From NCBI GenBank assembly GCA_903860915.1, contig CAIOSJ010000008.1, positions 36,573 to 100,572 of the forward strand: a stretch of 64,000 nucleotides of DNA, written 5' to 3'. A program made the position numbers and the translations under genes. Origin of the DNA: an uncultured Actinomycetes bacterium (GTDB lineage Bacteria; Actinomycetota; Acidimicrobiia; Acidimicrobiales; RAAP-2). The notes under the pieces were generated by a model. It searched no databases. It saw nothing but the letters and a program-made list of their open reading frames with translations, and was not told the DNA's origin. Shown one piece after another: positions 5,391 through 53,558 of the stretch (its first letter is position 1; the number at the start of each line of letters is the position of its first letter).

Positions 5391-5418
5391 CCTCGTAACA
5401 ACGCCTCGCCCCTACTAA

Positions 5419-7174
<1,756 letters not shown>

Positions 7175-7178
<4 letters not shown>

Positions 7179-7657
7179 CGGGTTTTCGCGACGCCTCCAC
7201 TGCAGATAGTGAGGCCGTGGCCCTCCTCGTTGGTCGGCCCATGTCGGGCCGTTTTGCCGTGGTGGTCCGCCGGGTGGGCGGTGAGCCCGTCGTGATTGAA
7301 AACGAACCGCACTTACGCGACGGTACCCCCATGCCCACGCTGCTGTGGCTGGTTGATCCGCAACTCACTAGTGCCGTGAGTCAGCTCGAGAGCTCCGGTG
7401 GAGTACACCGTTTCGAAGAGCTGGTCGATCCCGACGAACTCCAGAGCACTCACGACGACTACGCGAAGCGACGCGCGGCGGCGACGCAACGACACGATCT
7501 TGTGGCCCCCAGTGGCGGGGTCGGGGGGACGCGCACGGGGCTGAAGTGCTTGCACGCGCACCTGGCTAACTATCTCGCGGGTTATAGGGACCCGGTGGGT
7601 GAGCTGGTGGCGTCGACGGTGGAAATCCCCGAGTTGCGCCGTGAGCTGATTCGGTGA
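7175..7657 (+). CDS. DUF501 family protein (Rv1025-like)
   Basis: PMPTLLWL, VSQLESSG and GVGG...KCLHAHLA motifs; eno-ftsB-DUF501-ppx synteny; TTG start overlaps the upstream stop (TTGA). Confidence 0.88.
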
Positions 7658-8583
7658 GTTTCGCGGCCCTCGACTGCGGTTCCAACTCGACGCGCCTCTT
7701 GATCATTGACGACCAGGGTTGCAGTCTGGCCCGCGAAATGAGAATCACTCGTCTCGGTGAGGGTGTTGACGCCACCGGCCGACTTGGCGACCAAGCCGTG
7801 GAGCGTTGCTACGCCACTTTACGCGAGTACCGCACCCTGATGGACCAACATGGGGTCACCCGTTCGGCTTTGGTGGCAACCTCGGCCGCCCGCGACGCCA
7901 CCAACGGAGAGAAATTTCTCTCCGCGGCTGCCGCCATCACCGGAGCCGATGTCGCTCTTCTGAGTGGGAACGAGGAGGCCCGGCTCTCTTTTCTTGGCGC
8001 CACCGCCGACCTTCCTTCATCGTCACTGCCGACGATGATTCTGGATATTGGGGGTGGGTCGAGCGAACTAGCCGTGGAGGTGGCGGGTGGTCTCGCAACG
8101 CACTCCATGCAGCTGGGCTGTGTGCGGGTGGCCGAACGAGTGCTTGGTCACGGCGTGGTGAATAACGAATCACGAGCGGCGACGCTGGCCCTGATCGAAA
8201 GTGAACTCGACCACCTCTTTGACAGTGAACCTCGCTTTACTTCCGTCCTTGGTGCCGTGCGTCTGGTGGGTCTGGCCGGAACGGTGGCCACGCTGGCGCA
8301 GTTGGACGCCGGAACCAGCCTCTACGACCGAGCGCTCGTTCACCACCGCCTACTCAGTCGAGCACTGGTGAACCAATGGCGCGATCGTTTGGCCTCAGAA
8401 ACCCCAGCCCAGCGTCTCACTCACCCGGGCATGGTGGTGGGTCGTGAGGATGTTTTAGCGGCGGGTCTGTTCATCTTGAGTGCGGTGATGGAACGATTCG
8501 AGGTCTCCGAACTCATAAGTTCGGAGAACGACATCCTCGACGGTGTCGCGGCGACATTGCGTGACAATCAACAAATCATCTAG
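7654..8583 (+). CDS. ppx: Ppx/GppA family exopolyphosphatase
   Basis: AALDCGSNSTRLLI, ATSAARDATN, SGNEEARLSFLGA, DIGGGSSE, SENDILDG. Confidence 0.93.
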   Translation: MSFAALDCGSNSTRLLIIDDQGCSLAREMRITRLGEGVDATGRLGDQAVERCYATLREYRTLMDQHGVTRSALVATSAARDATNGEKFLSAAAAITGADVALLSGNEEARLSFLGATADLPSSSLPTMILDIGGGSSELAVEVAGGLATHSMQLGCVRVAERVLGHGVVNNESRAATLALIESELDHLFDSEPRFTSVLGAVRLVGLAGTVATLAQLDAGTSLYDRALVHHRLLSRALVNQWRDRLASETPAQRLTHPGMVVGREDVLAAGLFILSAVMERFEVSELISSENDILDGVAATLRDNQQII

Positions 8584-13453: not shown

Positions 13454-14409
13454 GAATCCTCGTGACGGGGGTTGCGGGTTTCATTGGTTCGAATACGGCC
13501 ACGCTGCTGGTCGCTCGCGGGGACAGTGTCGTCGGGGTCGACAATCTCTCGTCGGGACTCGCGAGCAACGTGCCGGCGGGGGTGGAATTCGTAGAAGGCG
13601 ATATCGCTGACTACGAGCTCATTCGATCCCTGGGGATTTTTGACGCGTGCATTCACTTCGCCGGTTTCATTGCCTCGGGCGAATCGATGGAAATTCCCGA
13701 GGTCTACTTTGCCAACAACGTGGCCGCCACTCTCGAAATGTTGCGCGCGCTGGTCGACGGCGGAACGGGGAAGGTCGTGTTTTCCAGTTCGGCCGGTGTC
13801 TACGGCGATGTCGCAACGCTGCCCATCGAGGAAGACGCGCCGACGACGCCGACGAGCCCCTACGGGGAAAGCAAACTCATGATTGAACAAGCGCTGCGCT
13901 GGTTCGCTCAACAAGGTCGCCTACGGGCCGCCGCCCTGCGCTACTTCAACGCGGCCGGTGGGACGTCGGCCCACCCCGAGCACCACAGCCAGGAGACTCA
14001 CTTAATTCCCTTGGCTCTGGCGTACGCCAACGGTGATCGGGACGCCTTTGTACTCTTCGGTGATGATTACCCGACGTCGGATGGGACCTGTATTCGTGAT
14101 TACGTGCACGTGCTCGACCTGGCTCGCGCTCACATCTTGGCCATTGACGCCCTCGACAATCACAATTACCTAGTCTGCAATCTGGGGACGGGCCGGGGTT
14201 TTTCTAATCGCGAAGTACTCGACGCCGTGGCTCGAGTGACGGGACTGACTCGCCAGGTGGCCACTGCTGATCGGCGACCCGGCGACCCGGCGGTTCTCGT
14301 GGCGTCGACGGCGAGAGCAGAACGGGTTCTGGGCTGGACGGCGCAGCACACACAACTCGACGGCATCGTCGCAGATGCGTGGACCGCGTATCAGGCCCTA
14401 GCGAAATAG
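13450..14409 (+). CDS. galE: UDP-glucose 4-epimerase
   Basis: VTGVAGFIGS, HFAG..ASGES, FSSSAGVYG, SPYGESK, LRYFNAAG, DGTCIRDYVHVLDLARAH. Confidence 0.92.
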   Translation: MRILVTGVAGFIGSNTATLLVARGDSVVGVDNLSSGLASNVPAGVEFVEGDIADYELIRSLGIFDACIHFAGFIASGESMEIPEVYFANNVAATLEMLRALVDGGTGKVVFSSSAGVYGDVATLPIEEDAPTTPTSPYGESKLMIEQALRWFAQQGRLRAAALRYFNAAGGTSAHPEHHSQETHLIPLALAYANGDRDAFVLFGDDYPTSDGTCIRDYVHVLDLARAHILAIDALDNHNYLVCNLGTGRGFSNREVLDAVARVTGLTRQVATADRRPGDPAVLVASTARAERVLGWTAQHTQLDGIVADAWTAYQALAK

Positions 14410-15108
14410 GTCGTTACTAGCTCGACGGAGGAGGTTCTCTCTGACGCTGCCGCTACCAAAAAACTCGGGCCGAAGCCCGCGAAAGACGGCGAAGGGCAAA
14501 CCCGTGGACTTACCGAGTACCAGATCAGCCGCTCCGGCAATTTCGTCGACAATCGCGACCTCGGTTGCCTCCAGGATGCGGCCATTCGCATCGGGAGTTC
14601 CACGGAGGTCCAGCACGGGGGTGAGGCCGGCCACGCCAATGGCCACGTCCGTGACCCCTTCACGCCAGACGCGACCGAATGTGTCGGTAATGAGAACGGC
14701 GATGTTGCGTCCGGTGGCGCGCTCAATATCCCCACGAAACCGACGGGCGGAACGATCGGGATCAGTGGGGAGCAGTACCGCCGTGCCGTCGTTGGTATTC
14801 GATAGATCGATACCGGCGTTGGCGCAGACGAATCCATGGTGCGTCTCCACGATACGCAAGCTGCCCCGGCGCCGAAGGGTTCGACGTGATTCTTGATCGA
14901 TGAGTTGGTCCTTGTGCTGCTCCGTCCCGTCGAAGTCCACCACGCGGCCCTCGGCCTTAGCGACAATCTTGCTCGTTACGGTCACGACGTCGTTCTCGAG
15001 TAGTTCGTCCCCCTGCGCGGCGAGGGCGGCGAGAAAAATATTCGCGAGATCATCTCCGGGACCAATGGGTCCGACGCCGGTCACCGGAAATATATGCAGT
15101 CCACTCAC
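14398..15108 (-). CDS. cofE: Coenzyme F420-0:L-glutamate ligase (stand-alone, no nitroreductase domain)
   Basis: PGDDLA, VTSKIVAKAEG, GFVCANAGIDLSN, LPTDPDRSA, ITDTFGRVWREGVTDVAIG, DEIAGAADL. Confidence 0.95.
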   Translation of the reverse strand: MSGLHIFPVTGVGPIGPGDDLANIFLAALAAQGDELLENDVVTVTSKIVAKAEGRVVDFDGTEQHKDQLIDQESRRTLRRRGSLRIVETHHGFVCANAGIDLSNTNDGTAVLLPTDPDRSARRFRGDIERATGRNIAVLITDTFGRVWREGVTDVAIGVAGLTPVLDLRGTPDANGRILEATEVAIVDEIAGAADLVLGKSTGLPFAVFRGLRPEFFGSGSVRENLLRRASNDLFR

Positions 15109-16019
15109 CGCAGCACCGCCGCCGCGAGCGCTCGCGCGTGATCGGGATCGCTCATAATGGTGGGGCTCACGATCACTTCCATGCCGAGTTCACGAATGGC
15201 ACTCTCGTGGTGTGCGTCGGCGACGTCGATGATCATGGTTCCGACGAGATCGCGGTAGTAGCGGGCAACTCCGACGCAGCTGACCTCGTGTCCGAGTTCG
15301 CCCAGTAGCCGGTCGGCGGGACCCTTGATGGCCGCTCCGTTGATGATGGGTGACACGGCCACGACCTCGGATCGACGGGTCGTGAGGATGTCCCGCACAT
15401 CAGCTACGGCGAGGATGGGCGCGATGGAGATCAGGGGATTGGACGGAGCAATCACGATTCTTTCGCTCGTCAATAGCGCGTGGCGCGACTCGTCACTCAG
15501 TCGCGCCACGGCGGCGCCGGAGAACTGGATGTCAGTCACGGCAACCTCGTGGTGGTGGCGAACGAAATACTCCTGAAAACTGAGGCGTCCGAGTTCGGTC
15601 GAAAATTCCGTCGAAATGGGGTCATTGCTCACGGGCAAGATGGTCATGTCGAGGCCCCAGTGGCGCGTCAGTTCGGCCGTGACCATGGATTTAGTCGCCC
15701 CGGCGGCCAGACGCTGCGAGCGGTAGAGGTGTGTCGCGAGGTCGCGGTCGCCCAGGGCGAACCACGCCTCACCGCCGAGCTCGTTGAGCTCTTTCATAAC
15801 GCGCCAACTTTCGCCGGCGAGCCCCCAACCCAATTCCGTGTTGTTCAGGCCGGCCAGCGTGTACGAAATGGTGTCGAGGTCGGGGCAAATGGTGAGGCCG
15901 TGCATGACGAGATCGTCCCCGACATTGACGACGGCGTGCAGATCACTGGCCGTGACGACCTTGGCGAGGGCCGACAGGAGCCGCGCCGCACCGACACCTC
16001 CACTGAGAACACAAATCAC
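15105..16019 (-). CDS. cofD: 2-phospho-L-lactate/PEP transferase CofD (FbiA)
   Basis: LSGGVGAAR, VNVGDD, ICPDLDT, WFALGDRDLATH, FQEYFV, IAPSNPLISIAPIL, KGPADRL. Confidence 0.96.
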   Translation of the reverse strand: MICVLSGGVGAARLLSALAKVVTASDLHAVVNVGDDLVMHGLTICPDLDTISYTLAGLNNTELGWGLAGESWRVMKELNELGGEAWFALGDRDLATHLYRSQRLAAGATKSMVTAELTRHWGLDMTILPVSNDPISTEFSTELGRLSFQEYFVRHHHEVAVTDIQFSGAAVARLSDESRHALLTSERIVIAPSNPLISIAPILAVADVRDILTTRRSEVVAVSPIINGAAIKGPADRLLGELGHEVSCVGVARYYRDLVGTMIIDVADAHHESAIRELGMEVIVSPTIMSDPDHARALAAAVLR

Positions 16020-31854: not shown

Positions 31855-33210
31855 GTGAATACTCGCGACGTGTTTAAGGCCTACGACATTCGAGGTACCT
31901 ACCCTGATCAGTTGAACGAGCAACTCCTGCGCGCCATCGGTTCGGCCTTCGCCACCTTCGCCGCCGTTCCCCACATTGTCATTGCTCGCGATATGCGTCC
32001 TTCGGGCGTCACCCTCGCTACCGCTTTTGCTGAAGGGGCTCGGGCGGTGGGCGTCGCGGTGACTGATTTAGGGCTCGCGTCCACGGATTTTTTGTACTTC
32101 GCCGCTGGCCATCTCGACATGCCGGGCGCCATGTTCACGGCTTCGCATAATCCGGCGCAGTACAACGGGATTAAGTTGTGCTTGTCGGGCGCGCGTCCAG
32201 TGGGCGTCGATACTGGACTCTCAGAAATTGAACGCCTGACTCAGCATTTTTACGAAGTACCCGCCTCCGGACCGCTGGCAGATTTCGATGAGCTGAATTT
32301 ACTCACCGAGTGGGTGGACCACGTTCGTTCCTTCGTTGACGTCACATCTCTGCGGCCGTTGCGCGTCGTGGCGGACACCGCCAATGGAATGGGTGGCTTC
32401 GTAGCCCCGTTGGTTTTTGACGGCCTCGGCTTGGACCTAGAGATTCTCTATCCGGAACTCGACGGCACCTTTCCCAATCACCCCGCCGACCCCATCCAGC
32501 CGGAAAATTTGCGCGACTTGCAACAGCGCGTGTTGGAAACGGCAGCCGATGTGGGCTTAGCCTTCGACGGGGACGCTGATCGAGTCTTTTTAATAAACGA
32601 AAAAGCGGAGCCCGTTTCCGGGTCGACCACCACGGCCATGGTGGCCGCCGCCATGCTGCGCCGTCACCCCGGGGCGACAATTCTTCACAATCTCATTTGC
32701 TCTAAGGCCGTCCCTGAGGTGATCGCCGAAGGTGGGGGTACCGCGGTTCGCACCCGGGTGGGGCATAGCTACATCAAGCAGTTGATGGCAGAGACGGGAG
32801 CAGTCTTTGGCGGTGAGCACTCGGGGCACTACTACTTTCGAGATAATTACCGAGCCGATTCGGGCATTATTACCGCCCTGGTTGTTTTGGAGCTACTCAG
32901 CGATTCGGGAGGCACCCTTTCCGAACTCGCCGCACCCTTCGAGCGCTATCGCGCGTCGGGCGAAATAAATACTGAGGTTCCCGACCCCAGCGCTTCGGTG
33001 AACGCGGTAGCTGCCCTCTTGACATCCCGGGGGGTAAGCGTTGACCGCCTCGATGGCTTGACGGCCACCTACGACACCTGGTGGTTCAATTTGCGCCCCT
33101 CCAATACCGAGCCCCTCCTACGACTGAATGTCGAAGCGTCAACGGACGAGGAACTCGCCCGACGTATCGAAGAAATTTCTCGGCTCATTGCCTCAACGAA
33201 AGGAAAATAA
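31855..33210 (+). CDS. manB: Phosphomannomutase/phosphoglucomutase
   Basis: FKAYDIRG, FTASHNP, DGTFPNHPADP, FDGDADR, GGEHSGHYYF, RPSNTEPLLRLNVE. Confidence 0.95.
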   Translation: MNTRDVFKAYDIRGTYPDQLNEQLLRAIGSAFATFAAVPHIVIARDMRPSGVTLATAFAEGARAVGVAVTDLGLASTDFLYFAAGHLDMPGAMFTASHNPAQYNGIKLCLSGARPVGVDTGLSEIERLTQHFYEVPASGPLADFDELNLLTEWVDHVRSFVDVTSLRPLRVVADTANGMGGFVAPLVFDGLGLDLEILYPELDGTFPNHPADPIQPENLRDLQQRVLETAADVGLAFDGDADRVFLINEKAEPVSGSTTTAMVAAAMLRRHPGATILHNLICSKAVPEVIAEGGGTAVRTRVGHSYIKQLMAETGAVFGGEHSGHYYFRDNYRADSGIITALVVLELLSDSGGTLSELAAPFERYRASGEINTEVPDPSASVNAVAALLTSRGVSVDRLDGLTATYDTWWFNLRPSNTEPLLRLNVEASTDEELARRIEEISRLIASTKGK

Positions 33211-33211
33211 C

Positions 33212-33415
33212 GTGCCCCTGGACAGTTTTTTACTGAGTGTGATCGTTGACCCCATTGACCACGGTCCCTTGACCTACGTCGAAGTCGATTCGATCTTGTA
33301 CAACCCGCGTCGGCACGTGATCTACGTGGTGCGTGACTCCATTCCCGTTCTCCTGCCCGGAGAGGCGCGTGACGCTTCGGCCGAGGAAATTGAACGATAC
33401 GGCGCTCTGGCTTGA
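33212..33415 (+). CDS. Trm112/UPF0434 family protein
   Basis: LLSVIVDPIDHGPL...YVVRDSIPVLLPGEAR; RBS AAGGA; conserved position after manB. Confidence 0.85.
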   Translation: MPLDSFLLSVIVDPIDHGPLTYVEVDSILYNPRRHVIYVVRDSIPVLLPGEARDASAEEIERYGALA

Positions 33416-33460
33416 TTGTGAGTTTGGCTAGCGGCGACGCGGGACAAGCAACGCGATTGG

Positions 33461-33482
33461 CTCTGTCATTAGGATGTTAGAG
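33461..33482 (+). promoter_or_regulatory. Imperfect inverted repeat around a -10 box (TAGGAT), candidate TetR operator
   Basis: CTCTgtCAT-TAGG-ATGttAGAG (7 of 9 pairs); TANNNT at 33470-33475; RBS GAGGAG before ATG 33499. Confidence 0.4.
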
Positions 33483-33498
33483 AGGAAAATGAGGAGCT

Positions 33499-34236
33499 AT
33501 GAGCCGTCGTATCGCCCTGCTTAACGATGCACGACACTACGTCGGCCCCGAACTGGCCCGAGCCTTCGCTCGCCGTAACCATGATCTAGTGATTGGCGAG
33601 GCATCGGATGAACTCGTTGGTGAGTTAGAGAACCTGGGCGCCCGCGTCGTTAATGTACAGGGTGTGAGCAACCTCACTGAGCCGCAGGCTGCACCACTGC
33701 TGGTCGAATCAGCGCTGGCGGAATTTGGACGCTTCGATGCCGCCGTCGCCTTTTCTGGTCAGATCATTCCCGGTCGTTTTCTCGATTCCAGTATCGAGGA
33801 CTTGAGGTCTATTGTTTCGGGCTGCCTCGAAGGCCCCTACCATTTTCTCAAGGCGGTTGCGCCACCACTCGTGGCCCAGGGTGCGGGCCAGATAGTTCTC
33901 ATCACCAGTGCGGCGGGTGCGCGACCGACCAAGGGAGCGGCGCTCTATTCTTCGGTACGAGCGGCCGCGTCGATGATGGCGCGAAATTTAGCGGCAGATA
34001 TCGCACCGCACGGCGTGCAGGTTAACGCCATCGGGACCAACTTCATGGATTTCCCAGAATTTCATGCGGCTTCGGGTACTAATGATCCCGTCCGCCGTGC
34101 GGCTCTTGAGGCCCGTGTGCCGCTGCGACGAATGGGTGGCCTGGAAGAATTCGCCAACTTCTCTATGGCCTTTTTGGATGGCAGCAGTGGCTTCACGACT
34201 GGTCAGTTTGTGGCCTACGCCGGCGGCTGGGCGTAG
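33499..34236 (+). CDS. hheG: Halohydrin dehalogenase, G-type (HheG-like) SDR
   Basis: No TGxxxGxG; N9-X4-Y14-X-G16 instead; triad S137-X12-Y150-X3-R154 (Arg, not Lys); GVQVNAIGTNFMDFP, VPLRRMG, LDGSSGFTTGQF, GGW as recalled for HheG. Confidence 0.85.
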   Translation: MSRRIALLNDARHYVGPELARAFARRNHDLVIGEASDELVGELENLGARVVNVQGVSNLTEPQAAPLLVESALAEFGRFDAAVAFSGQIIPGRFLDSSIEDLRSIVSGCLEGPYHFLKAVAPPLVAQGAGQIVLITSAAGARPTKGAALYSSVRAAASMMARNLAADIAPHGVQVNAIGTNFMDFPEFHAASGTNDPVRRAALEARVPLRRMGGLEEFANFSMAFLDGSSGFTTGQFVAYAGGWA

Positions 34237-40472: not shown

Positions 40473-41681
40473 TTAGTTCAGTCGCTCAACAATCATCGAC
40501 ATGCCCTGGCCACCACCGACGCACATGGACTCCATGCCGTAGGTCTTGCCAGTGTCTTCGAGAGCGTTCAGCAGCGTCGTCATGATACGGGCTCCGGTCA
40601 TTCCGAAGGGGTGGCCGAGTGCGATGCCGCCACCCATGATGTTCAGCTTTTCCCACGAGATACCGAGGTGTTTGGCCGAGGGGATTACCTGAGCGGCGAA
40701 GGCTTCGTTGATTTCAACGAGGTCAATGTCGTCAATGGTGAGGTTCGCGCGACGCAGCGCCTGACGACAGGCTTCGATCGGTCCCAGACCCATGATTTCG
40801 GGGTTGAGGCCACTAACGCCGGACGAGACTATGCGAGCCAGTGGGGTGATGCCCAGCTGCTTGGCCTTGGTGTCACTCATGACCACCACGGCGGCTGCTC
40901 CATCGTTCAGGGGGCAGGCGTTTCCGGCCGTAATTGAACCACCGGGGCGAAAGACGGGCTGCAGGGTGGCGAGCTTTTCAACCGTGGTACCGGCGCGGGG
41001 ACCGTCGTCCTTGCTCACGACGGTTCCGTCGGCCAAGGTGACGGGGATGATTTCGCGGTCGAAGAAGCCATTTTCCTGGCTGGCCACGGCGCGACTCTGA
41101 GAGAGGGCAGCGAACTCGTCCATTTCCTGGCGCGACACGTTCTCGTACTCCGCAACGTTCTCGGCGGTTTGGCCCATGGCGATGTAGATGTCGGGTAGTC
41201 CCGTTGGGGGAGTCCAAGCGCCGTGACCACCTTCGGCGCGCTGGGTGGTACGTGCGTAGGCGTCAGCGAAGATGGGGTTAGCCGCGTTGCCTGAGTCCGA
41301 AGCACCCGCGCCGTAGCGTGAGACGGTTTCTACACCGGCGGCGATGAAGACGTCACCCTCTCCAGCGCGAATAGCGTGAGCGGCCATGCGTATGGTCTGC
41401 AGCGAACTCGAGCAGTAACGATTGACCGTAACCCCTGGAACGTCGTCTAAACCAGCGAGGATGGCGGCGACGCGCGCAATGTTAAAGCCGGACTCGCCGG
41501 AGGGCTGTCCACAGCCCAACATGAGATCTTCGACACTGTTGGGGTTCAACTGGGGTACCTTTGCGAGGACCTCGCGCACGACGAGTGCGGTGAGATCGTC
41601 GGGTCGCATAGTACTGAGTGACCCCTTGAAGGCACGGCCGATGGCAGTGCGTCCGGTGGCAACAATTACGGCTTCGGGCAT
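40473..41681 (-). CDS. Acetyl-CoA C-acyltransferase (thiolase)
   Basis: MPEAVIVATGRTAIG, TVNRYCSSSLQ, NACPLNDGAA, EINEAFAAQ, GIALGHPFGMTG, MCVGGGQG; RBS AAGGAGG. Confidence 0.95.
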   Translation of the reverse strand: MPEAVIVATGRTAIGRAFKGSLSTMRPDDLTALVVREVLAKVPQLNPNSVEDLMLGCGQPSGESGFNIARVAAILAGLDDVPGVTVNRYCSSSLQTIRMAAHAIRAGEGDVFIAAGVETVSRYGAGASDSGNAANPIFADAYARTTQRAEGGHGAWTPPTGLPDIYIAMGQTAENVAEYENVSRQEMDEFAALSQSRAVASQENGFFDREIIPVTLADGTVVSKDDGPRAGTTVEKLATLQPVFRPGGSITAGNACPLNDGAAAVVVMSDTKAKQLGITPLARIVSSGVSGLNPEIMGLGPIEACRQALRRANLTIDDIDLVEINEAFAAQVIPSAKHLGISWEKLNIMGGGIALGHPFGMTGARIMTTLLNALEDTGKTYGMESMCVGGGQGMSMIVERLN

Positions 41682-41748
41682 TTTTCCTCCTTGGGGGTTA
41701 CTCCGTGGTAACTCTGTCACTATATCGAGAACTGGATTGGCTCTTTGG

Positions 41749-44592: not shown

Positions 44593-46716
44593 ATGAAATA
44601 TCGTTCCTGGTCCACGGCAGCTGCGGCTGCTTCACTATTGGCGACAACCCTCGCCGTGGTGACGCCGTCACTTTCCTTTGCCGGAACCCCGGCCATGCCC
44701 GACGCGGCGGTCGCGAGCTGCGACGCGCTCGTCACGACCCCGGTCAACCACAGTTGCCTTCTACCCTGGCCGAATAACGCATTTACAATTCCGGCCAAGA
44801 CCAATACTGGTCGACAGATTCACATTTCGGCGACGTCAACGCCCGCCAATAAAAGCGGCGTACACATCAACCCGACCTATCAGAACCGCAATGACGGATT
44901 CTCACCCGGCTCGGTGATCATGATTAACGTCCCCAACCTTTCCACCTCGGCCACAGGCATTGCGCCTTCGACCAACATTGGCCAGTCTCTACCGAGCAGC
45001 GACACGTCGCCGATTGTCCTGCTCGACACGGTGACCCACCAGCACGTTCCGTACTTCGCCGAACTTGACGGACAAAACACCGATGCCAGTACGCAACTGC
45101 TCCTGATTCACCCGGCCATTAACTTCTTGGAGACGCACCGCATTGTGGTGGTACTACGCAATCTCAAAGATGCCAACAACGCCGCTATTGCTCAGTTGCC
45201 CGGGGAAACCACTGCATTGAAGGCAGCCAAGCCCACGACCCGGCAAGCGCACTTGAAGTGGATTGTGCAAAATGACCTCAAGGGACTGAACACCAGCAGT
45301 CTCTACGCCGCATGGGACTTTACGGTTATTTCCGGTGCGGGAAGCTCGACGAGCAAGTTCACCCAAGGTTCTCTCGCGGACGCGGGCCTCACCATGCGTG
45401 ATCAGGCCTTTAAGTCCGTCGGGACCAAGGCTCCGGTATTCCGAGTGACCAACGTCTCGGACAACACCCTGGTACACGAAGTCCACGGTAGTTTTCTCGT
45501 GCCGACTTTCTTAAAAGCCTGCCCGACCACGCAGACCGCCGAATACCAGAGTACGAATACTTCCAATTGCTCATCGATGAACCTCGACAAAAATGGTTTA
45601 CCCCTCCTGGTTCCGGATGCGACTCGTCAAATTTGGGCCAACTTTATCTGTGTCATGCCCGAGACTCTGTCGAGCACCCAGGGAGCAGCTCTCCCCACGC
45701 TTTACGGTCACGGTCTCCTCGGTAGTGCTCACGAAGTGGCGGGTGGTTCTTTCGCTCACGGGGTGCAGGACAACATGATGGGCTGTGCCACGGACTGGTC
45801 CGGAATGTCGGGTTCGGACCTCCTGTTGGTAGCGGCGTCACTGGGGGACATGAGTTACTTCCACGTACTGACTGATCACATGCTGCAGGGTTTTGTGAAC
45901 TTCCAGTTCCTCGGTCGTCTGATCAACTCGGCTCAGGGCTTCGCCAAGGATCCGGCCTTCCAACAGAGCGGGGCTGCACGCTTCCTCGTGGGCAAGTGTG
46001 GCTACATGGGCTACTCGCAGGGTGGCATCATGGGCGGGGCGCTGTCGGCCCTTTCGACGCAATGGAGCAAAGTGATCTTGGGGGTTCCGGGTCTTAACTA
46101 CGGTGGACTGCTGCTGAACCGCTCCACCGACTGGCTGGAGTTTGCTTCGGTCTACAACCCCGCTTACCCCAACTCCACCGACCAACAAGTGGGTCTGCAA
46201 TTGGCTCAACTCCTCTGGGATCGTGGCGAAAATGATGGTTACACCCAACACATCACGGCTAACCCCTACGAGGGCACCAAGGTCAAGCAGGTCTTTCTCA
46301 TTGAAAACTATGGCGACCACCAGGTAACCAACGCTTCGGCGGAAGTCCTGGCTCGATCCATTGGAGCGGTGGACCACAAGCCCGTCTTCAACCCAGTCTT
46401 TACCGATCTCACCAACCCCAGTCACCCGGTGGTGGGTACGGCTCGCAGTAACGTGCCCGTCGTAATGCATTGGGGGATTACTGCCGCTGATCAGACCAAG
46501 GTCAACAAGGCCACACTGGTTCTGTGGGACTACGGCACACCGACCCCGCCGACGGATAACCGTGCACCAGTGAACACCAGCATTTATGGAAATGACCCCC
46601 ACGGTTACGGTCGACGCACGGACGCTCTACTCAGCCAAGTGACAACTTTTATGAAGACCGGACTAGTTCCGGATCTCTGTAATGCCGCCGCTTGTCAAGG
46701 TATTCCGGGCTCGTGA
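44593..46716 (+). CDS. Secreted alpha/beta hydrolase (lipase-like) with N-terminal Ig-like region
   Basis: Sec signal (SFA/G); LLPWPNN and RNDGFSPGS N-terminal motifs; YGHGLLG; nucleophile GYSQG; YGDHQV; NDPHG. Confidence 0.72.
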   Translation: MKYRSWSTAAAAASLLATTLAVVTPSLSFAGTPAMPDAAVASCDALVTTPVNHSCLLPWPNNAFTIPAKTNTGRQIHISATSTPANKSGVHINPTYQNRNDGFSPGSVIMINVPNLSTSATGIAPSTNIGQSLPSSDTSPIVLLDTVTHQHVPYFAELDGQNTDASTQLLLIHPAINFLETHRIVVVLRNLKDANNAAIAQLPGETTALKAAKPTTRQAHLKWIVQNDLKGLNTSSLYAAWDFTVISGAGSSTSKFTQGSLADAGLTMRDQAFKSVGTKAPVFRVTNVSDNTLVHEVHGSFLVPTFLKACPTTQTAEYQSTNTSNCSSMNLDKNGLPLLVPDATRQIWANFICVMPETLSSTQGAALPTLYGHGLLGSAHEVAGGSFAHGVQDNMMGCATDWSGMSGSDLLLVAASLGDMSYFHVLTDHMLQGFVNFQFLGRLINSAQGFAKDPAFQQSGAARFLVGKCGYMGYSQGGIMGGALSALSTQWSKVILGVPGLNYGGLLLNRSTDWLEFASVYNPAYPNSTDQQVGLQLAQLLWDRGENDGYTQHITANPYEGTKVKQVFLIENYGDHQVTNASAEVLARSIGAVDHKPVFNPVFTDLTNPSHPVVGTARSNVPVVMHWGITAADQTKVNKATLVLWDYGTPTPPTDNRAPVNTSIYGNDPHGYGRRTDALLSQVTTFMKTGLVPDLCNAAACQGIPGS

Positions 46717-47885
46717 GTGAGGGACGCGGCCTCCTCGCCCCGCTGGGGCCATCGGCAACGGTGGGTCTTGCGGACGAGGGGGATCCGCGTCGCTTGGAGA
46801 TTCGCGACTGGCTCGCGGAGCACCCGTCGGCCTCGTGGCGTGAGCTGGCTCACGACGGACTCGTGGCGCCACACCTGCCGCGACCCTGGGGTCGTGACGC
46901 TGACGTGGAATCGCAACTCGTCATTGAAGAAGAATTGCGCCGAGCCGGCGTAAGTCGGCCCATCAACCCCATTGGTATTGGCTGGGCCGGTCCCACGCTG
47001 ATTCACGCCGGTACGGCCGAGCAGCAACAACGTTGGTTGCCCCGTTTGATGTCGGGTGAGGATTTTTGGTGCCAACTCTTTAGCGAGCCCAATGCCGGAA
47101 GTGATTTAGCCTCACTATCAACGACGGCCGTGCGTGACGGTGACGAATGGGTCATCACGGGTCAAAAGGTGTGGACCTCGTACGCCCACATTGCGGCCTA
47201 CGGCATCCTGCTCGCCCGAACATCAAGTGAGGGGGCGCCCCAGCAGGGCATTAGCTACTTCGTCTGCCCTATGAATCTCCCGGGCATTACGGTGCGACCT
47301 CTGATTGATATGACCGGCGATCACGCCTTTAACGAGGTCTTCCTGGACGAAGTTCGCCTCCCAGCCGATCACCTCATTGGCGCAGTCAATGACGGGTGGC
47401 GCCTAGCCAAGGTGACCCTCGGTAACGAGCGCGTTTCGCTCTCCGGGGAGGGCGCTCTGTGGGGACGAGGCCCGACGGCCCTCGATCTCGTAAGGGCAGC
47501 GGCCAGTCTCGGGAAAGTACCGGCTCTCGTTCGCGACAACCTGGTTCGTTGCTGGTCGCATGGCGAAATTCTGCGCCTCCTCCGTCTGCGACTGCTCTCT
47601 TCGGCCATTCGGGGACGCGAACCCGGTCCGGAAGCCAGCGTGCGCAAGGCCCTCGCGGATGATCACGGTCAGGAAATAATGGGCCTTGCTCAAGATCTGG
47701 CTGGTATGGCCGCTCAACTCAGTGGTCGAGGCCCCGGTGGCGTCGCCGGTGAAGTCGGAGCCATGTGGAGTCACGGATTTCTCTACGCCCAAGCTCTGAC
47801 CATTGGTGGCGGCACCTCAGTGGTGCAACGTAACATCATCGCCGAGCGCGTCCTGGGTCTCCCCAAGGAAATAGCCAATAACTAG
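46713..47885 (+). CDS. Acyl-CoA dehydrogenase (FadE family)
   Basis: WCQLFSEPNAGSDLASL, GQKVWTS, FNEVFLDEV, LGNERV, TIGGGTSVVQRNIIAERVLGLP; GTGA coupling to the hydrolase. Confidence 0.93.
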   Translation: MSEGRGLLAPLGPSATVGLADEGDPRRLEIRDWLAEHPSASWRELAHDGLVAPHLPRPWGRDADVESQLVIEEELRRAGVSRPINPIGIGWAGPTLIHAGTAEQQQRWLPRLMSGEDFWCQLFSEPNAGSDLASLSTTAVRDGDEWVITGQKVWTSYAHIAAYGILLARTSSEGAPQQGISYFVCPMNLPGITVRPLIDMTGDHAFNEVFLDEVRLPADHLIGAVNDGWRLAKVTLGNERVSLSGEGALWGRGPTALDLVRAAASLGKVPALVRDNLVRCWSHGEILRLLRLRLLSSAIRGREPGPEASVRKALADDHGQEIMGLAQDLAGMAAQLSGRGPGGVAGEVGAMWSHGFLYAQALTIGGGTSVVQRNIIAERVLGLPKEIANN

Positions 47886-48391
47886 ATTTTCAGCGGTCCC
47901 GCGTCGGCGAATCCCTGACGAATTCCCATACCGGCGCGTTGACTGAGTTCCTCGGGGTCAAAGAGCATCCAGTAGGCGTTACGCGCGTGCGAGCGGGAGC
48001 GATTTTCAAAAACACTCGCGAGAACGATGGGGTCTTCGGCTTCGTCTTCATGGACGAAGACTTCCAAGATGGGAATTCCGGTGAGGACTTGGGCCAGCAT
48101 GATACCCAGCGCAGCTTCGTGGGCGCACTGTTTGTCAATGGCCGCACTACCGGGCATGCCCAGCGCTACGACAATGGAGCACTGCTCTTTTTCGATGAGG
48201 TTCTTCGCGGCTACTGCAAGGTCCTTGAAACCAGGTACGGTTCGGGCAATGGTGGTGAAAGTCTCGCCGTATCCGGGGCACTCGGCCAACTCGCCGAGGG
48301 CCGCCGCGCCCATGTTGAATCGAGCAAACATGGTATCCACCACGCCGATACGCACAATTTTGCTCGATACGCTTGTTTTCTTTTTTCCCAC
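47882..48391 (-). CDS. ribC: Archaeal-type (lumazine synthase-fold) riboflavin synthase
   Basis: IGVVDTMFAR, RTVPGFKDL, ALGMPG..AIDKQCAHEA..GIMLAQ, ILEVFVHEDEA, AGMGIRQGFADAGP match archaeal RibC motifs; RBS GGAGGA. Confidence 0.92.
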   Translation of the reverse strand: MGKKKTSVSSKIVRIGVVDTMFARFNMGAAALGELAECPGYGETFTTIARTVPGFKDLAVAAKNLIEKEQCSIVVALGMPGSAAIDKQCAHEAALGIMLAQVLTGIPILEVFVHEDEAEDPIVLASVFENRSRSHARNAYWMLFDPEELSQRAGMGIRQGFADAGPLKI

Positions 48392-48504
48392 GGATCCTCC
48401 AATGGTCGTAGGTTGAAGTCTAGGGCTCGATTAGATAAGCGTTCTCTCAGGTTCGTGACTTGGCGTCGACGTCGTGACCTCCGCCGACCGTCAAAATTGA
48501 CCTC

Positions 48505-50301
48505 GTGCCCGCTACTCACGAAGAAGCTAGGCGTTGGAGCTGGCGCCCTGTTGTACTCATCGTGTTGTCGTACACGGCACTCGCGAGCTTTTACTTTTGG
48601 CATCTTGGGCTGCTGAGCAACAGTCAAATTGTGAACTCCAATTCTGGAGATTCAGTGCAACAAGTCTGGTTCCTGGCCTGGGCGTCGGCGGCGATTCTGC
48701 ACGGACACAACATATTTGTGACGCACGCCATGAATTACCCCGATGGGGTGAACCTATTCTCGAATACTTCGATGCTGCTGCTCGGCGTTCTCGCAGCCCC
48801 GCTCACGTGGTTGGTCGGCCCGGTCGCAAGTTTTGGCGCACTGCTACGACTTGGTTTCGTCGCCTCCGCTCTGAGCGCCGCTTCGGCGACGCGTCGTCTC
48901 GGGAAATCATGGTCGTCGTCGTGGCTCGTCGGTTTACTGTTCGGGTTTGGATCGTACCGAACGTCGGTCGGAATGACGCACGTTTTTGCGGCCGTGGACG
49001 TCACTACGCCGTGGCTCCTGTTTACCCTGATACGCCTGTCCCAGTCTCGTTGGTCGCTGCGGCGTTCCGGCGTGATGCTGGGTCTGTTAATTGGTCTGGG
49101 CGGTTTGATCTCCTTGGAACGATCAGTGATTTACGTCGTCGTCGTGGCGGCCTGCGGGCTGGTGGCCTTGATACGAGGTCGCAGTCGAGCAACCTTGCAG
49201 AGCCTGGGCGAAACCGGTGGCTGGCTGACAGTGGTGGCTGTTTCAATTCTGGCCCTACCCACCTATTTTTATTTATGGGGTCCCCAGGCGCTACACAAGA
49301 ATCCGCACTCCAGCGATTTTTTCGCTAGTTTCACGACAACATGGCGTGATGTATTGCAGCCGGGACCAAGTCATTTATGGTCTCCAGTGGGGCACCAGGG
49401 GCTGGATGTCGCTGCGATTTCTGGAGTGTGGAGCAATCCCTCCTACCTGGGAATCCCCTTGATTGTGGCGGCGGGTATCGGCGCATATCGACGGAGGCAT
49501 GAACCCCTGACGCGCGCGGCCGTGGGTCTGAGCACTCTGCTTGTAATGATCAGCATGGGGAGAAATCTTCCCATGCTCGGGAATGTTTCTCTGCTGAACA
49601 CTCCGTCGTGGGTGCTGGGCCACGTGCCGCTGGTGGGGAGTATCACCCCGGACCGCTATATGAATACGGGCACGCTCGTCATTAGTTTTCTCGCAGTTGG
49701 GGCCTTCGACGGGGCTCGCCGTTGGCGACAACATCTAGTTCGCTCCGGCCTCGCTGCACTTGTGGCCCTCGCCCTCGTTGTGTCTATTCTCCCCGCGGCT
49801 AGTTACCCAGTGGTAGCAACGGGTGAGTGCACGTGGTTATCCAGTCCGGAAGCGCACAGCGTCATCACCCAGAATGCGGTTGTTGTGGCTTACCCCTACC
49901 CCATGGGTGTCTTTAATCAGGGCATGCTTGATCAGGCGCAGTCGGGTATCTACTACCGATTAGTGGGAGGCTACGCCATTGTCCCCAACGCCCACAGTGT
50001 CCTGAGCGGGGTGGCTCCGTTACGGCCCTACCAGGTCTTTGACACCTTGACCAGGGCCTACCTCGGCCCCCTGTCCGGGCCCTCGAGTACCTATCCTTTC
50101 AAACTCGGCGAGATTCCACCCTACGGTGCCGCAACGGCCGGGGTTTTTAGGAAATTCGTGAGGATGCACCATGTGAATTTTGTGGTCTATCAAAATGTTG
50201 GTGCGTACCCCGAACTGGCGCGCCTCTATCTCGGTCGGGCATTTGGCGCGGGGCGAGTTTTCGACCACGGCCAGGTCGTCGTATGGAAGGTGTCAAAGTA
50301 A
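48505..50301 (+). CDS. Multi-TM membrane protein, probable GT-C (YfhO-like)
   Basis: First TM followed by GDSVQQVWFLAW and NYPDGVNLFSNTS loop; about 11 TMs; YLG motif; C-terminal soluble domain. Confidence 0.65.
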   Translation: MPATHEEARRWSWRPVVLIVLSYTALASFYFWHLGLLSNSQIVNSNSGDSVQQVWFLAWASAAILHGHNIFVTHAMNYPDGVNLFSNTSMLLLGVLAAPLTWLVGPVASFGALLRLGFVASALSAASATRRLGKSWSSSWLVGLLFGFGSYRTSVGMTHVFAAVDVTTPWLLFTLIRLSQSRWSLRRSGVMLGLLIGLGGLISLERSVIYVVVVAACGLVALIRGRSRATLQSLGETGGWLTVVAVSILALPTYFYLWGPQALHKNPHSSDFFASFTTTWRDVLQPGPSHLWSPVGHQGLDVAAISGVWSNPSYLGIPLIVAAGIGAYRRRHEPLTRAAVGLSTLLVMISMGRNLPMLGNVSLLNTPSWVLGHVPLVGSITPDRYMNTGTLVISFLAVGAFDGARRWRQHLVRSGLAALVALALVVSILPAASYPVVATGECTWLSSPEAHSVITQNAVVVAYPYPMGVFNQGMLDQAQSGIYYRLVGGYAIVPNAHSVLSGVAPLRPYQVFDTLTRAYLGPLSGPSSTYPFKLGEIPPYGAATAGVFRKFVRMHHVNFVVYQNVGAYPELARLYLGRAFGAGRVFDHGQVVVWKVSK

Positions 50302-50350: not shown

Positions 50351-51655
50351 ATGGCTTGGGATTTTGAAACTGAACCGGAGTTTGCAGCACAGCTGGACTG
50401 GATGCGGGATTTCGTCAAGCGAGAGGTATTTCCACTGGAAACTCTGCACCTTTCGTACGACAGGGTGAGAGAAATTATCAAACCACTACAGGAAGAGGTC
50501 AAGGCTCGCGGTCTCTGGGCGGCGCACCTGCCCGCGGAAATGGGGGGCATGGGTTTCGGTCAAGTGCGCCTTGGTCTCATGCACGAAATTTTGGGACAGA
50601 GCCCCTACGGCCCGGTGGTTTTTGGAAACAACGCGCCCGACAGCGGTAACGCCGAACTTCTCGCCGCCGGCATGGAAATGACGGGACGTCACGACATTCG
50701 AGAGCGCTGGATGCAGCCGCTACTCGACGGTAAGATTCGCTCCGGCTTCTCAATGACCGAGCCCCACACCGCCGGAAGTGACCCCCGTCTGCTGGCGACG
50801 ACCGCGACGAAAGATGGTGACCAGTGGGTCATTAACGGACGGAAGTGGTACACCACCAATGGATCAGTCGCCGACATCTTGATCGTGATGGCCGTGAGCA
50901 ATCCCGACGTACACCCCTATCAGGGCTCCTCGATGTTCGTGGTGCCCGTCACCACCCCGGGTCTCACGATTTTACGTGACGTCGGGGCTATGGACGATCC
51001 GCAAGTGACCTACGGACGCTTTGGCAATCACGCCGAAATTCTCTACGAAGACGTGCGCATTCCAGCCGACCACTTGATTGGTCACGAGGGATCAGGCTTC
51101 CTCCTAGCCCAGGCCCGACTCGGCCCGGGCCGCATCCACCACTGCATGCGGTGGCTGGGCCAGAGTCAGCGCGCCTTCGACATGATGTGCGAGCGCGCCC
51201 TGAGCCGCTTCACCCACGGGTCCTTGCTCAGTGAGAAGCAGACGATTCAAAATTGGATTGCCGACTCGCAAGCCGAGATGCACGCGGCCCGACTCATGAC
51301 CCTGCACGCCGCGTGGAAGATGGATCAGGTGGGTGCGTCGGCCTCGCGTAACGAAATCGCGATGATCAAGTACTACGGCGCCACGGTGCTGCACAACGTG
51401 ATCGACCGTGCGATTCAAACCTACGGATCGCTGGGCTACTCGGCTGACATGCCGCTCGAGGCGATGTACCGCGCCGCGCGCGCAGCTCGTATTTACGACG
51501 GACCCGACGAAGTGCACCGTCAGACGGTGGCGCGCCGCGCTCTGAAGAATTACACCCCGAGCGACATCCCGACTGATCACATTCCCACGCGAGCTGCGGC
51601 CGCGAGAGAGAAGTACGCCGACATTCTCGAGTTCTGGGAATCTGCGGAAGCCTAA
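50351..51655 (+). CDS. Acyl-CoA dehydrogenase (ACAD10/11, FadE2-like)
   Basis: MAWDFETEPEF, FGNNAPDSGNAE, FSMTEP..AGSDP, AQARLGPGRIHHCMR, ARIYDGPDEVH; RBS AAGGAG. Confidence 0.93.
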   Translation: MAWDFETEPEFAAQLDWMRDFVKREVFPLETLHLSYDRVREIIKPLQEEVKARGLWAAHLPAEMGGMGFGQVRLGLMHEILGQSPYGPVVFGNNAPDSGNAELLAAGMEMTGRHDIRERWMQPLLDGKIRSGFSMTEPHTAGSDPRLLATTATKDGDQWVINGRKWYTTNGSVADILIVMAVSNPDVHPYQGSSMFVVPVTTPGLTILRDVGAMDDPQVTYGRFGNHAEILYEDVRIPADHLIGHEGSGFLLAQARLGPGRIHHCMRWLGQSQRAFDMMCERALSRFTHGSLLSEKQTIQNWIADSQAEMHAARLMTLHAAWKMDQVGASASRNEIAMIKYYGATVLHNVIDRAIQTYGSLGYSADMPLEAMYRAARAARIYDGPDEVHRQTVARRALKNYTPSDIPTDHIPTRAAAAREKYADILEFWESAEA

Positions 51656-52605
51656 AAACCGAGGTCCGCGAGTCGTTGGTCGAGCCAGTCCACGAGGAGT
51701 TGCTCATCATGAAGTGCGTCGTCGGAGCGCGTGGACCTGAGGCGATGCACCGGGCGCTCGACCCGGTCGAGCCATAGGCCACCACCCGGCGCTGGGGGCG
51801 TAACCGTGGCGAGCCAGAGAGCCCCGTCAACTCCCTGCAGAGCTGTTCGCAGCAAGGGGGAGGCGAGGCGATTGAAGAGCGGCAAACTGGTGGCCACACC
51901 CGGTGTCGCAGCCCAACCTGGGTGTACGGCGTAGAACAGACGCCCCGTGGGAGGCTCTCGGCGCTGTAGTGCGGCGCAAAGAACGACCTGAGCGCGTTTA
52001 ACTCGGGCGTAGGCGACGGAACCACGGTAGCCCTCGGATGACGCCTCGAGCGTGTCGAGGGTGAAGGGCTGCGTGTACATGCCTCCTGATGTCATGAAGA
52101 TAATTCTCTGACGCATCTGCGTTACGGGGGTACCCATGGCTCGGGTGATGAGATAGGGCGCGAGCAGATGCACCGCCAGGGTCTGTTCCACTCCGTCGGC
52201 ACTTTGACCGTAGGAGAGTGCGAGGGCACCAGCGTTGTGCACGAGCGCGTCAATGGGACCACGTGCGCTGAGTCGCTGGGCGAGTTCGTGCGCCTCGGTG
52301 AGAGAACTGAGGTCGTAGCGCCAGGCTTCGCCCCGAGATCCCCAGGATTCTTGGAGTTCCGCGAGGGCGGTTTCATTGCGCCCGACCGCAATGACGTGGG
52401 CTCCCCGCTCGATAAGTACTTGAGCTCCCGCCCGTCCGAGTCCGGAGGTGGCACCCGTCACGACCACGACCCGCCCATCGAGACGAGGAATATCCGGCCA
52501 GGACTGAAGAGGTCGGCGAACGAGGGGCCCGAGTCGCGAAAAGCTGCCGATGACACTCGCCTCCAGGATCCGATCAATCCCCTCGCGAGCCGGGATTATT
52601 CTCAC
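51652..52605 (-). CDS. Short-chain dehydrogenase/reductase (DHRS12-like)
   Basis: VTGATSGLG, LVHNAG, MTSGGMYTQ, YARVKR (YxxxK), HPGWAATPGV. Confidence 0.88.
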   Translation of the reverse strand: MRIIPAREGIDRILEASVIGSFSRLGPLVRRPLQSWPDIPRLDGRVVVVTGATSGLGRAGAQVLIERGAHVIAVGRNETALAELQESWGSRGEAWRYDLSSLTEAHELAQRLSARGPIDALVHNAGALALSYGQSADGVEQTLAVHLLAPYLITRAMGTPVTQMRQRIIFMTSGGMYTQPFTLDTLEASSEGYRGSVAYARVKRAQVVLCAALQRREPPTGRLFYAVHPGWAATPGVATSLPLFNRLASPLLRTALQGVDGALWLATVTPPAPGGGLWLDRVERPVHRLRSTRSDDALHDEQLLVDWLDQRLADLGF

Positions 52606-53558
52606 GATTGAGGTGCGAGCCCCTCAATGGCGTCACCGAGGTCAACCCCGATGGGGATGACGGCCAGCGTGGGAATATCGACACCACCGTCGATGTAACG
52701 CTGGACGTGGGCTCGACACTGGTCGAAGGAGCCGTGGATAATGAGCTCGTCGACGACTTCGTCGGAAATAAGCGTGTTGGCGGCCTTGCGGTCACCTGCG
52801 GCCCAGGCGTCCCACATGGGTTGCAGGGCGTCGCCGCGTCCAAGCCAGCGGTGAAATTCGGCGTAGGCGTGAACCGTGAGGTAGGAGGAAATCATGCGTC
52901 GCGCCACCATACGAGCGAGGTCGGCGTCTTCGGTGGGAATAACAAAAAGTCGAGCGGCGATGGTCTTGTCCGCACCCACTTCGGCCCGGCACTGGGCGAC
53001 GTCGGCCGCGGAAAGCCAATTCAAGATTGCCCCGTCAGCTTCACGACCCGCCAAACGCAGCATCCCTGGGCGTAAGGCTCCGAGGAGAATCGGCGGCCGT
53101 GCGGCCACTGGTCGGGCGAGTTTGAATCCGTGGACTTCGACGGTCGGGAAGACTTCGTCGATCTTCTCGCCATCCAAAGCTCTCTTTACAAAGCGCAAGA
53201 CGTCGCGGGTCTTGGCGTAGGGATCTTTGTACTCAATCCCATTCCAGCGCTGTACGACGGGCAGAGAGGAGGCGCCGAGTCCCATCGTGAAACGACCCGG
53301 GGCCGCTTCGGCCATAGCTGCAATACTCATAGCCATAAGGCCCACGCCGCGGGTGTACACGGGGGTGACGGCCACACCTAATTGAAGGCGGGGTTCCCAA
53401 GCGGCGGCTAATGCCAGTGGGGTGAAGCCGTCGGTGCCGTCAACTTCGGCGGACCAGACGTCGGTGTAACCCAGGTTGGCAATGCGGTGGAACCACTCGC
53501 GATGTTCCGCCAAAGTTATGCCATCGAAGGGAATAGTGAGGCCGTAGCGCTGAGTCAT
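52602..53558 (-). CDS. F420-dependent luciferase-like oxidoreductase (Rv3093c/TIGR03841-like)
   Basis: YGLTIP, LGYTDVWSAEVDGTDGFTPLALAA, PVYTRG, GALRPGML, YAEFHRWLGR; cofD/cofE are in the same window. Confidence 0.85.
   Translation of the reverse strand: MTQRYGLTIPFDGITLAEHREWFHRIANLGYTDVWSAEVDGTDGFTPLALAAAWEPRLQLGVAVTPVYTRGVGLMAMSIAAMAEAAPGRFTMGLGASSLPVVQRWNGIEYKDPYAKTRDVLRFVKRALDGEKIDEVFPTVEVHGFKLARPVAARPPILLGALRPGMLRLAGREADGAILNWLSAADVAQCRAEVGADKTIAARLFVIPTEDADLARMVARRMISSYLTVHAYAEFHRWLGRGDALQPMWDAWAAGDRKAANTLISDEVVDELIIHGSFDQCRAHVQRYIDGGVDIPTLAVIPIGVDLGDAIEGLAPQS

Follow-up and report, generated by a model that had tools for sequence, protein, structure and literature searches.

The stretch of DNA analysed here (64,000 nt, referred to below as the window) covers positions 36,573 to 100,572 of contig CAIOSJ010000008.1 of assembly GCA_903860915.1, the genome of an uncultured bacterium of the order Acidimicrobiales. 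At 47882-48391, on the minus strand, it carries ribC, a gene with a GTG start codon whose 169-aa product is assigned to the archaeal-type riboflavin synthases with the lumazine synthase fold. The initial annotation of the window had proposed this identity together with a Shine-Dalgarno sequence of the gene's own, a position among lipid genes away from any rib operon, and an origin by inter-domain transfer or non-orthologous displacement that was possibly tied to F420 flux. The analysis presented below upholds the assignment and the displacement and leads to another view of the F420 link and of the novelty claimed. Very probably, the organism performs the last step of vitamin B2 biosynthesis with the pentameric enzyme typical of archaea, the bacterial gene ribE having been lost from its operon.

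The ribC gene and its product

All six motifs ascribed to the 169-aa protein are found in its translation: VDTMFAR, TVPGFKDL, LGMPG, CAHEA, EVFVHEDEA and GIRQGFADAGP. The predicted ribosome-binding site is also in place, since the sequence GGAGG can be read at 48396-48400 on the minus strand, 4 nt 5' of the GTG codon; the reverse complement of 48392-48401 is TGGAGGATCC. The 113-nt intergenic region at ribC harbors neither a sigma-70-like promoter detectable by consensus scan nor a terminator. The GC content of the gene (56.9%) and that of its third codon positions (GC3, 65%) are inside the range of the neighbouring genes. Residues 1-13 of RibC (window 48353-48391, minus strand) form a Lys-rich N-terminal extension of ~12-13 residues, MGKKKTSVSSKIV, which is modelled with low confidence (pLDDT ~56). 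Comparable extensions (MAKKK...) are carried by close relatives of the protein.

RibC matches the NCBIfam equivalog model TIGR01506 (ribC_arch) with 170.5 bits at a cut-off of 100.55, and the match covers positions 2-151 of the 151-position model. With TIGR00114, the model for lumazine synthase, the score is only 25 bits, below the cut-off of 84.6. The only Pfam hit is PF00885 (DMRL_synthase, 49 bits), the family of the shared fold. In a phmmer search of the PDB the riboflavin synthase of Methanocaldococcus jannaschii (2b98) is the top match (E = 1.2e-47, residues 14-167), the best value for a lumazine synthase being E = 0.0033. With the characterised enzyme of M. jannaschii, RibC shares a sequence identity of 53-57% over the full length, against 16-25% with lumazine synthases.

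The AlphaFold monomer model of RibC, built on a 50-sequence family alignment, has a mean pLDDT of 92.4. When it is compared with the PDB by Foldseek, 2b98 (2b98_C) again ranks first, with a target-normalised TM score of 0.96, a root-mean-square deviation (rmsd) of 1.1 A and 53% identity, and lumazine synthases follow with TM ~0.76 and rmsd >3 A. Every column that is invariant in the family, according to alignments of 26 and 50 sequences, is kept in RibC; examples are D19, T20, F22, T51, P53, G54, K56, G81, D86 and H114, as well as E117, R131, H135, N138, R158, Q159 and G160. These comparisons of sequence and of the predicted model support the membership of the 169-aa protein in the archaeal pentameric riboflavin synthase family, and the scores against the two NCBIfam models agree with the identity given in the initial annotation. 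The family itself is compact and conserved: it comprises 240 clusters at 50% identity among 1.84 billion representatives.

Natural fusions of an archaeal-type synthase domain with a lumazine synthase domain that follows it were seen in seven proteins of ~290-330 aa (P0145, P0146, P0151, P0154, P0170, P0173 and P0191). In P0181 the same two domains are fused in the reverse order, with the lumazine synthase domain first.

Riboflavin pathway of the host

The host assembly consists of 33 contigs with a total length of 1.67 Mb (93% complete, 59% GC); the window belongs to contig C8. The genes ribD, ribBA and ribH are present above the curated cut-offs, and both RibD (306 bits) and RibH (146.8 bits) are encoded on contig C16. 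One strand of this contig carries rpe, ribD (33103-34083), ribBA (31889-33103) and ribH (from 31357), so the rib operon is indeed apart from ribC. A search of the whole genome for the bacterial RibE (TIGR00187) gave no match at E <= 0.001, which bears on the question, raised with the initial annotation, of whether the genome keeps a bacterial riboflavin synthase. The FMN (flavin mononucleotide) riboswitch, said to be missing at ribC, was found nowhere in the assembly.

The operon has no room for ribE because the stop codon of ribD overlaps the start of ribBA. The order ribD-ribBA-ribH is also observed in families f1, f8, f122, f143 and f144 (one genome each), with gaps between ribD and ribBA of 2 to ~200 nt. 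Within the same order, four families that carry RibE show the arrangement ribD-ribE-ribBA-ribH. Thus, in the archaeal-type lineages ribBA directly follows ribD, and in the RibE families ribE stands between them; the former have hence lost the ribE slot cleanly. RibC is the sole candidate for the synthase step in the genome and, judging by sequence, there is a strong case that it is the only riboflavin synthase of the cell.

Distribution of the two synthase types

The genomes counted in this section are related to each other, and the counts describe a pattern rather than serve as a statistical test. Within the genus, the archaeal type is present in 31 of 36 genomes and RibE in none. When 24 other families were sampled with one genome each, RibE was found in 22, and the only family with the archaeal type (f8) has no RibE. 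Of 301 genomes drawn evenly from the order, 38 contain the archaeal type and 218 RibE. The archaeal-type genomes belong to families f1, f8, f109, f110, f120, f122, f132, f136, f143, f144, f145 and f154, and 36 of the 38 are devoid of RibE, the overlap being limited to G559 and G607. Some 12 families of Acidimicrobiales have conserved the archaeal type, which is an old trait; family f109 holds both states. Among 401 evenly drawn genomes of Actinomycetota (248 genera) it was scored in two only, both from this genus, one of them being the genome of the window. The possibility, left open by the initial annotation, that the family is routine across the phylum can thus be set aside.

The RibE of G559 and G607 is atypical, as it forms the N-terminal half of a RibE-RibB fusion protein (410-434 aa). 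The fusion is encoded at 5123-6355 (minus strand) of locus L140 in G559 (family f144) and at locus L139 in G607; its C-terminal half resembles DHBP synthase (RibB). The gene of G559 adjoins genes of a phosphate ABC transporter and of NADH dehydrogenase, outside the rib operon. The idea that these fusions are a retained ribE of the operon was rejected on account of their fused nature and their position away from the rib operon.

Families were also ranked by RpoB identity to see whether the RibC-bearing ones group together in the species tree. Those next to the genus mostly bear RibC (f144, f132, f143, f109 and f8), though the values are flat (68-75%), and the RibC-bearing f145 and f136 are low. 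The absence of RibE from the genome of the window and from its 36 congeners, the operon without ribE and the complementary distribution of the two types support the proposal that ribC displaced the bacterial ribE, a non-orthologous displacement.

Phylogeny and origin of ribC

The maximum-likelihood tree was calculated from 75 rows and 161 columns. The Acidimicrobiales sequences form one clade (support 94/86), inside which they group by family. Its sister (95/98) includes proteins labelled at NCBI as Rhizomicrobium sp. and Caulobacteraceae bacterium, and the two together make a joint bacterial clade (95/96). This clade stands in a polytomy with clades found on plainly archaeal contigs, as witnessed by genes for ribosomal proteins S17e and L21e, Rpb4, EF-2 and subunit D of the A-type ATPase. 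These archaeal contigs carry a ribB-ribL-ribC-ribH cluster. Named sequences of Thermoplasmata and that of M. jannaschii stand further off.

In the tree rooted with RibH, the bacterial clade is nested several nodes inside archaeal sequences. The family is widespread among archaea but of narrow occurrence in bacteria, and transfer from archaea to bacteria is for this reason the best reading of the tree, which supports the inter-domain origin suggested by the initial annotation. The donor can probably be narrowed only to a lineage among Thermoplasmata-like archaeal sequences. In the same rooted run, the clade labelled as Alphaproteobacteria falls inside the Acidimicrobiales polytomy, and the gene may have passed between these bacteria in either direction.

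Two further observations concern the other bacterial members. At locus L128 of the sister clade, which belongs to a bacterial contig, an archaeal-type ribC (8001-8525, plus strand) and a RibBA gene (6342-7883, minus strand) are oriented divergently; this RibBA carries an N-terminal HTH_17 DNA-binding domain and might regulate itself. Another transfer into bacteria may be represented by a third clade, which has a long branch (P0168, P0169 and P0181). The loci L131 and L132 of this clade are short contigs with bacterial-looking neighbours, namely a wax-ester synthase (WS/DGAT), MerR and a ribH-ribC tandem.

Gene neighbourhood

The genes around ribC in the window encode acyl-CoA dehydrogenases, a thiolase, an acyl-CoA synthetase and an esterase. 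They are lipid-catabolism genes of the beta-oxidation type, in agreement with the location among lipid genes noted before. Synteny was examined at the 80 closest loci in species-representative genomes, all of which are metagenome-assembled genomes of Acidimicrobiales or Acidimicrobiaceae from peat (palsa, bog, fen), Danish soils and acid mine drainage.

Three genes recur next to ribC in these relatives. A homologue of the acyl-CoA dehydrogenase encoded at 50351-51655 (plus strand; NCBIfam), which is divergent from ribC and its syntenic neighbour in the window, is located no more than 4 kb from ribC in 47 of the 80. An F420-dependent LLM-class oxidoreductase, represented in the window at 52602-53558 (minus strand; TIGR03841, 282.6 bits at a cut-off of 213.65), is found within the same distance in 46, one or two genes off. 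Both are given here as context. The thiolase, an acetyl-CoA C-acetyltransferase at 40473-41720 (minus strand; NF005890, 686 bits), occurs at a distance of up to 4 kb from ribC in 53 relatives and in the commonest arrangements follows it directly on the same strand.

The commonest local order (30 genomes of the 80) is F420-LLM(+), acyl-CoA dehydrogenase(-), ribC(+), thiolase(+), and the second (12 genomes) is LLM(+), ribC(+), thiolase(+). The window keeps the four elements in the same order with extra genes inserted: those for a 598-aa membrane protein, an SDR, a second acyl-CoA dehydrogenase, a 707-aa protein and an acyl-CoA synthetase. As a result of other genes lying between them, thiolase and ribC are here ~6 kb apart. 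The 598-aa multi-pass membrane protein (48505-50301, plus strand) and the 707-aa protein with a signal-peptide-like N-terminus (44593-46716, plus strand) flank ribC. NCBIfam gives no hit for either of them, and each occurs near ribC in a single one of the 80 relatives; their genes look like lineage-specific insertions into the conserved LLM-acyl-CoA dehydrogenase-ribC-thiolase locus. In all 80 relatives, the 4 kb on either side of ribC are free of rib and cof genes.

The conserved synteny, the clades of the gene tree that follow families and the native composition point to an old acquisition followed by vertical inheritance. In an empty-site comparison with RibE-bearing relatives, the synteny around the thiolase is not kept and no insertion site could be demonstrated.

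Proposed scheme and alternative explanations

The best overall explanation of the data, which we hold with considerable confidence, is that RibC is the sole riboflavin synthase of the organism, is of the archaeal pentameric type and was acquired from an archaeon, after which ribE was lost. According to this scheme, five RibC subunits would form a ring with the active sites at the subunit interfaces. Each active site would bind two molecules of 6,7-dimethyl-8-ribityllumazine made by RibH, and RibC would dismutate this pair, by way of a pentacyclic intermediate expected in the archaeal (R,S) form, into riboflavin and 5-amino-6-ribitylamino-2,4(1H,3H)-pyrimidinedione, the latter being reused by RibH. 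As to the history, the gene would have passed from an archaeon into the ancestor of a group of Acidimicrobiales families, and the acquired ribC would have settled between genes of lipid catabolism and taken over the last step. Deletion of the bacterial ribE from a ribD-ribE-ribBA-ribH operon would have followed.

Several points weigh against this explanation. The assembly is 93% complete, so that the absence of RibE from this single genome is no proof, and it is the 36 congeners that carry the argument. In five of these congeners neither enzyme type was detected, and neither was seen in ~47 of the 301 genomes of the order. The latter genomes are either incomplete assemblies or possibly auxotrophs; the two observations together mean that some lineages may be auxotrophic or use something unrecognised. 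The branch of the RibH outgroup is very long (4.75 changes per column), which makes the root insecure, and several neighbouring clades of the tree have no assigned domain. Finally, catalysis and pentamer formation in the bacterial members, and likewise the order of events, are what we infer from the sequences.

Among the alternatives, a tie of ribC to the supply of F420 or its precursor F0 was put forward with the initial annotation. RibC would then provide pyrimidinedione for the F0 synthase or act in partnership with an F420-dependent oxidoreductase. The genes it was built on do exist: cofD (15105-16019, minus strand) and cofE (14398-15108, minus strand) are present in the window, as is an F420 enzyme, and the LLM oxidoreductase found within 4 kb of ribC in 46 of the 80 relatives is adjacent to it in ~12. 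The cof genes are, however, 32 kb away from ribC, and none is close to it in the relatives. Between LLM and ribC there is, in the most frequent arrangement, an acyl-CoA dehydrogenase gene of opposite orientation, which means that LLM and ribC are not one operon, and their proximity is explained equally well by inherited synteny. F420 synthesis does not track the synthase type either, because the F0 synthase FbiC occurs with either riboflavin synthase: it was detected in 23 of the 25 genera sampled across the order, most of them RibE users, including nearly all RibE-bearing families. Although CofG, CofH and FbiC were not found in this 93%-complete assembly, FbiC (~756 aa) is present in 35 of the 36 congeners, and its lack here is probably an assembly gap rather than a sign of F0 scavenging. 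Besides, both synthase types release the same ribitylaminopyrimidinedione (PMC13151069). The link to F420 is thus very improbable.

It is also conceivable that RibC is an auxiliary synthase serving a specialised flavin, like RibE2 of Streptomyces, with housekeeping synthesis left to an unrecognised enzyme or replaced by uptake. The location of ribC outside the rib operon would fit this role, and RibE2, the only bacterial precedent described, is presented in PMC11039241 as an extra copy in a secondary-metabolite cluster. Neither feature of that precedent, a housekeeping RibE alongside and a flavin-antibiotic cluster, is found here. There is no RibE in the genome or its 36 congeners that RibC could supplement, and its neighbours are genes of the beta-oxidation type with no flavin-modifying genes nearby, although no search was aimed at rosA or rosB homologues. 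Moreover, ribC is kept in nearly every genome of a genus with streamlined genomes of 1.3-3.6 Mb. We consider an auxiliary role very improbable.

Less probable still is that RibC is a diverged paralogue of lumazine synthase (RibH2-like). The common fold and Pfam family would allow it, but both the model scores and the sequence identities given above place RibC with the riboflavin synthases by a wide gap, and a canonical RibH is already encoded in the genome. A misplacement of archaeal DNA in an actinobacterial genome by assembly or binning, conceivable for a draft of 33 contigs, is effectively refuted, as ribC lies in the middle of a 102-kb contig among typical actinobacterial genes that it resembles in composition and the same gene with its neighbours recurs in 80 independently assembled Acidimicrobiales genomes, several of them closed chromosomes (2.4-3.0 Mb); a chimeric contig, as considered before, is accordingly very improbable.

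Displacement of RibE by an archaeal RibC thus remains the preferred explanation, and one extension of it may be mentioned, unlikely as we regard it: the replacement may not have been neutral, the pentameric type being retained because it gives these Acidimicrobiales of peat, soil and acid mines an advantage over the trimeric RibE. This advantage could be insensitivity to natural inhibitors or flavin antimetabolites, or it could lie in a physical or regulatory partnership with the LLM oxidoreductase, which is found beside ribC in over half of the relatives. In a related possibility, the spread of archaeal-type synthases in bacteria may go beyond what textbooks state; the sequences studied include at least three clades that look bacterial.

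Comparison with known systems

The enzyme family is well known and correctly named in databases. Homologues 77-82% identical to RibC appear at NCBI as "riboflavin synthase [Acidimicrobiales bacterium]" or "[Actinomycetota bacterium]". With these records, with the gene in ~12 families and with the Streptomyces RibE2 precedent (PMC11039241), the novelty assigned to the finding in the initial annotation was overstated, and no new enzyme, mechanism or system is revealed. It is the host that is unusual and the lineage-wide displacement that is clean. The literature collection searched contains no work that mentions riboflavin synthase in connection with Acidimicrobiia.

What the locus offers is a whole block of bacterial families that would depend on RibC as their sole riboflavin synthase, contrary to the label "of Archaea", and a neat natural experiment on the displacement of a gene by a non-orthologous one from another domain. 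It may also provide biochemistry with a mesophilic bacterial source of the pentameric enzyme. In practical terms, pathway-reconstruction tools that look for RibE only would miscall these abundant peat and soil bacteria riboflavin auxotrophs.

In reviews, the pentameric riboflavin synthase is treated as the enzyme "of Archaea", the only sources of characterised examples being two methanogens, M. jannaschii and M. thermautotrophicus (PMC5397151, PMC13151069). RibC of the window shares with the M. jannaschii enzyme (MJ1184; PDB 2B98/2B99) a full-length alignment, the motifs, TIGR01506 and the fold (1.1 A), and presumably the reaction. The host here is a bacterium, however, and ribC stands alone among genes of lipid catabolism, whereas in the nearest archaeal relatives it is part of a ribB-ribL-ribC-ribH cluster. 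The Lys-rich N-terminal extension is likewise absent from the M. jannaschii protein. The archaeal-type RibC would work in this bacterium with an upstream pathway of the bacterial type, i.e. RibD, RibBA and RibH.

The trimeric RibE (TIGR00187, PF00677), the enzyme displaced here, performs the same overall reaction at the same place in the pathway. It is a trimer of an unrelated two-barrel fold, and its pentacyclic intermediate is of opposite stereochemistry to that of the pentameric type (PMC13151069). Lumazine synthase RibH (TIGR00114, PF00885) has a paralogous fold, a pentameric building block and the same Pfam family as RibC, but catalyses the preceding step, and the genome's own RibH is encoded in the rib operon.

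The closest parallel is RibE2 of the roseoflavin producers Streptomyces davaonensis and S. berlinensis. In PMC11039241, which cites Jankowitsch et al. 2012, RibE2 is described as archaeal-like, encoded in the rosB cluster and attributed to horizontal transfer; it is thus likewise an archaeal-type synthase in an actinobacterium. As presented there, RibE2 is an extra copy beside a normal RibE, confined to a secondary-metabolite cluster of a few species. In the Acidimicrobiales, by contrast, the archaeal-type enzyme most probably serves as the sole riboflavin synthase, and this in ~12 families.

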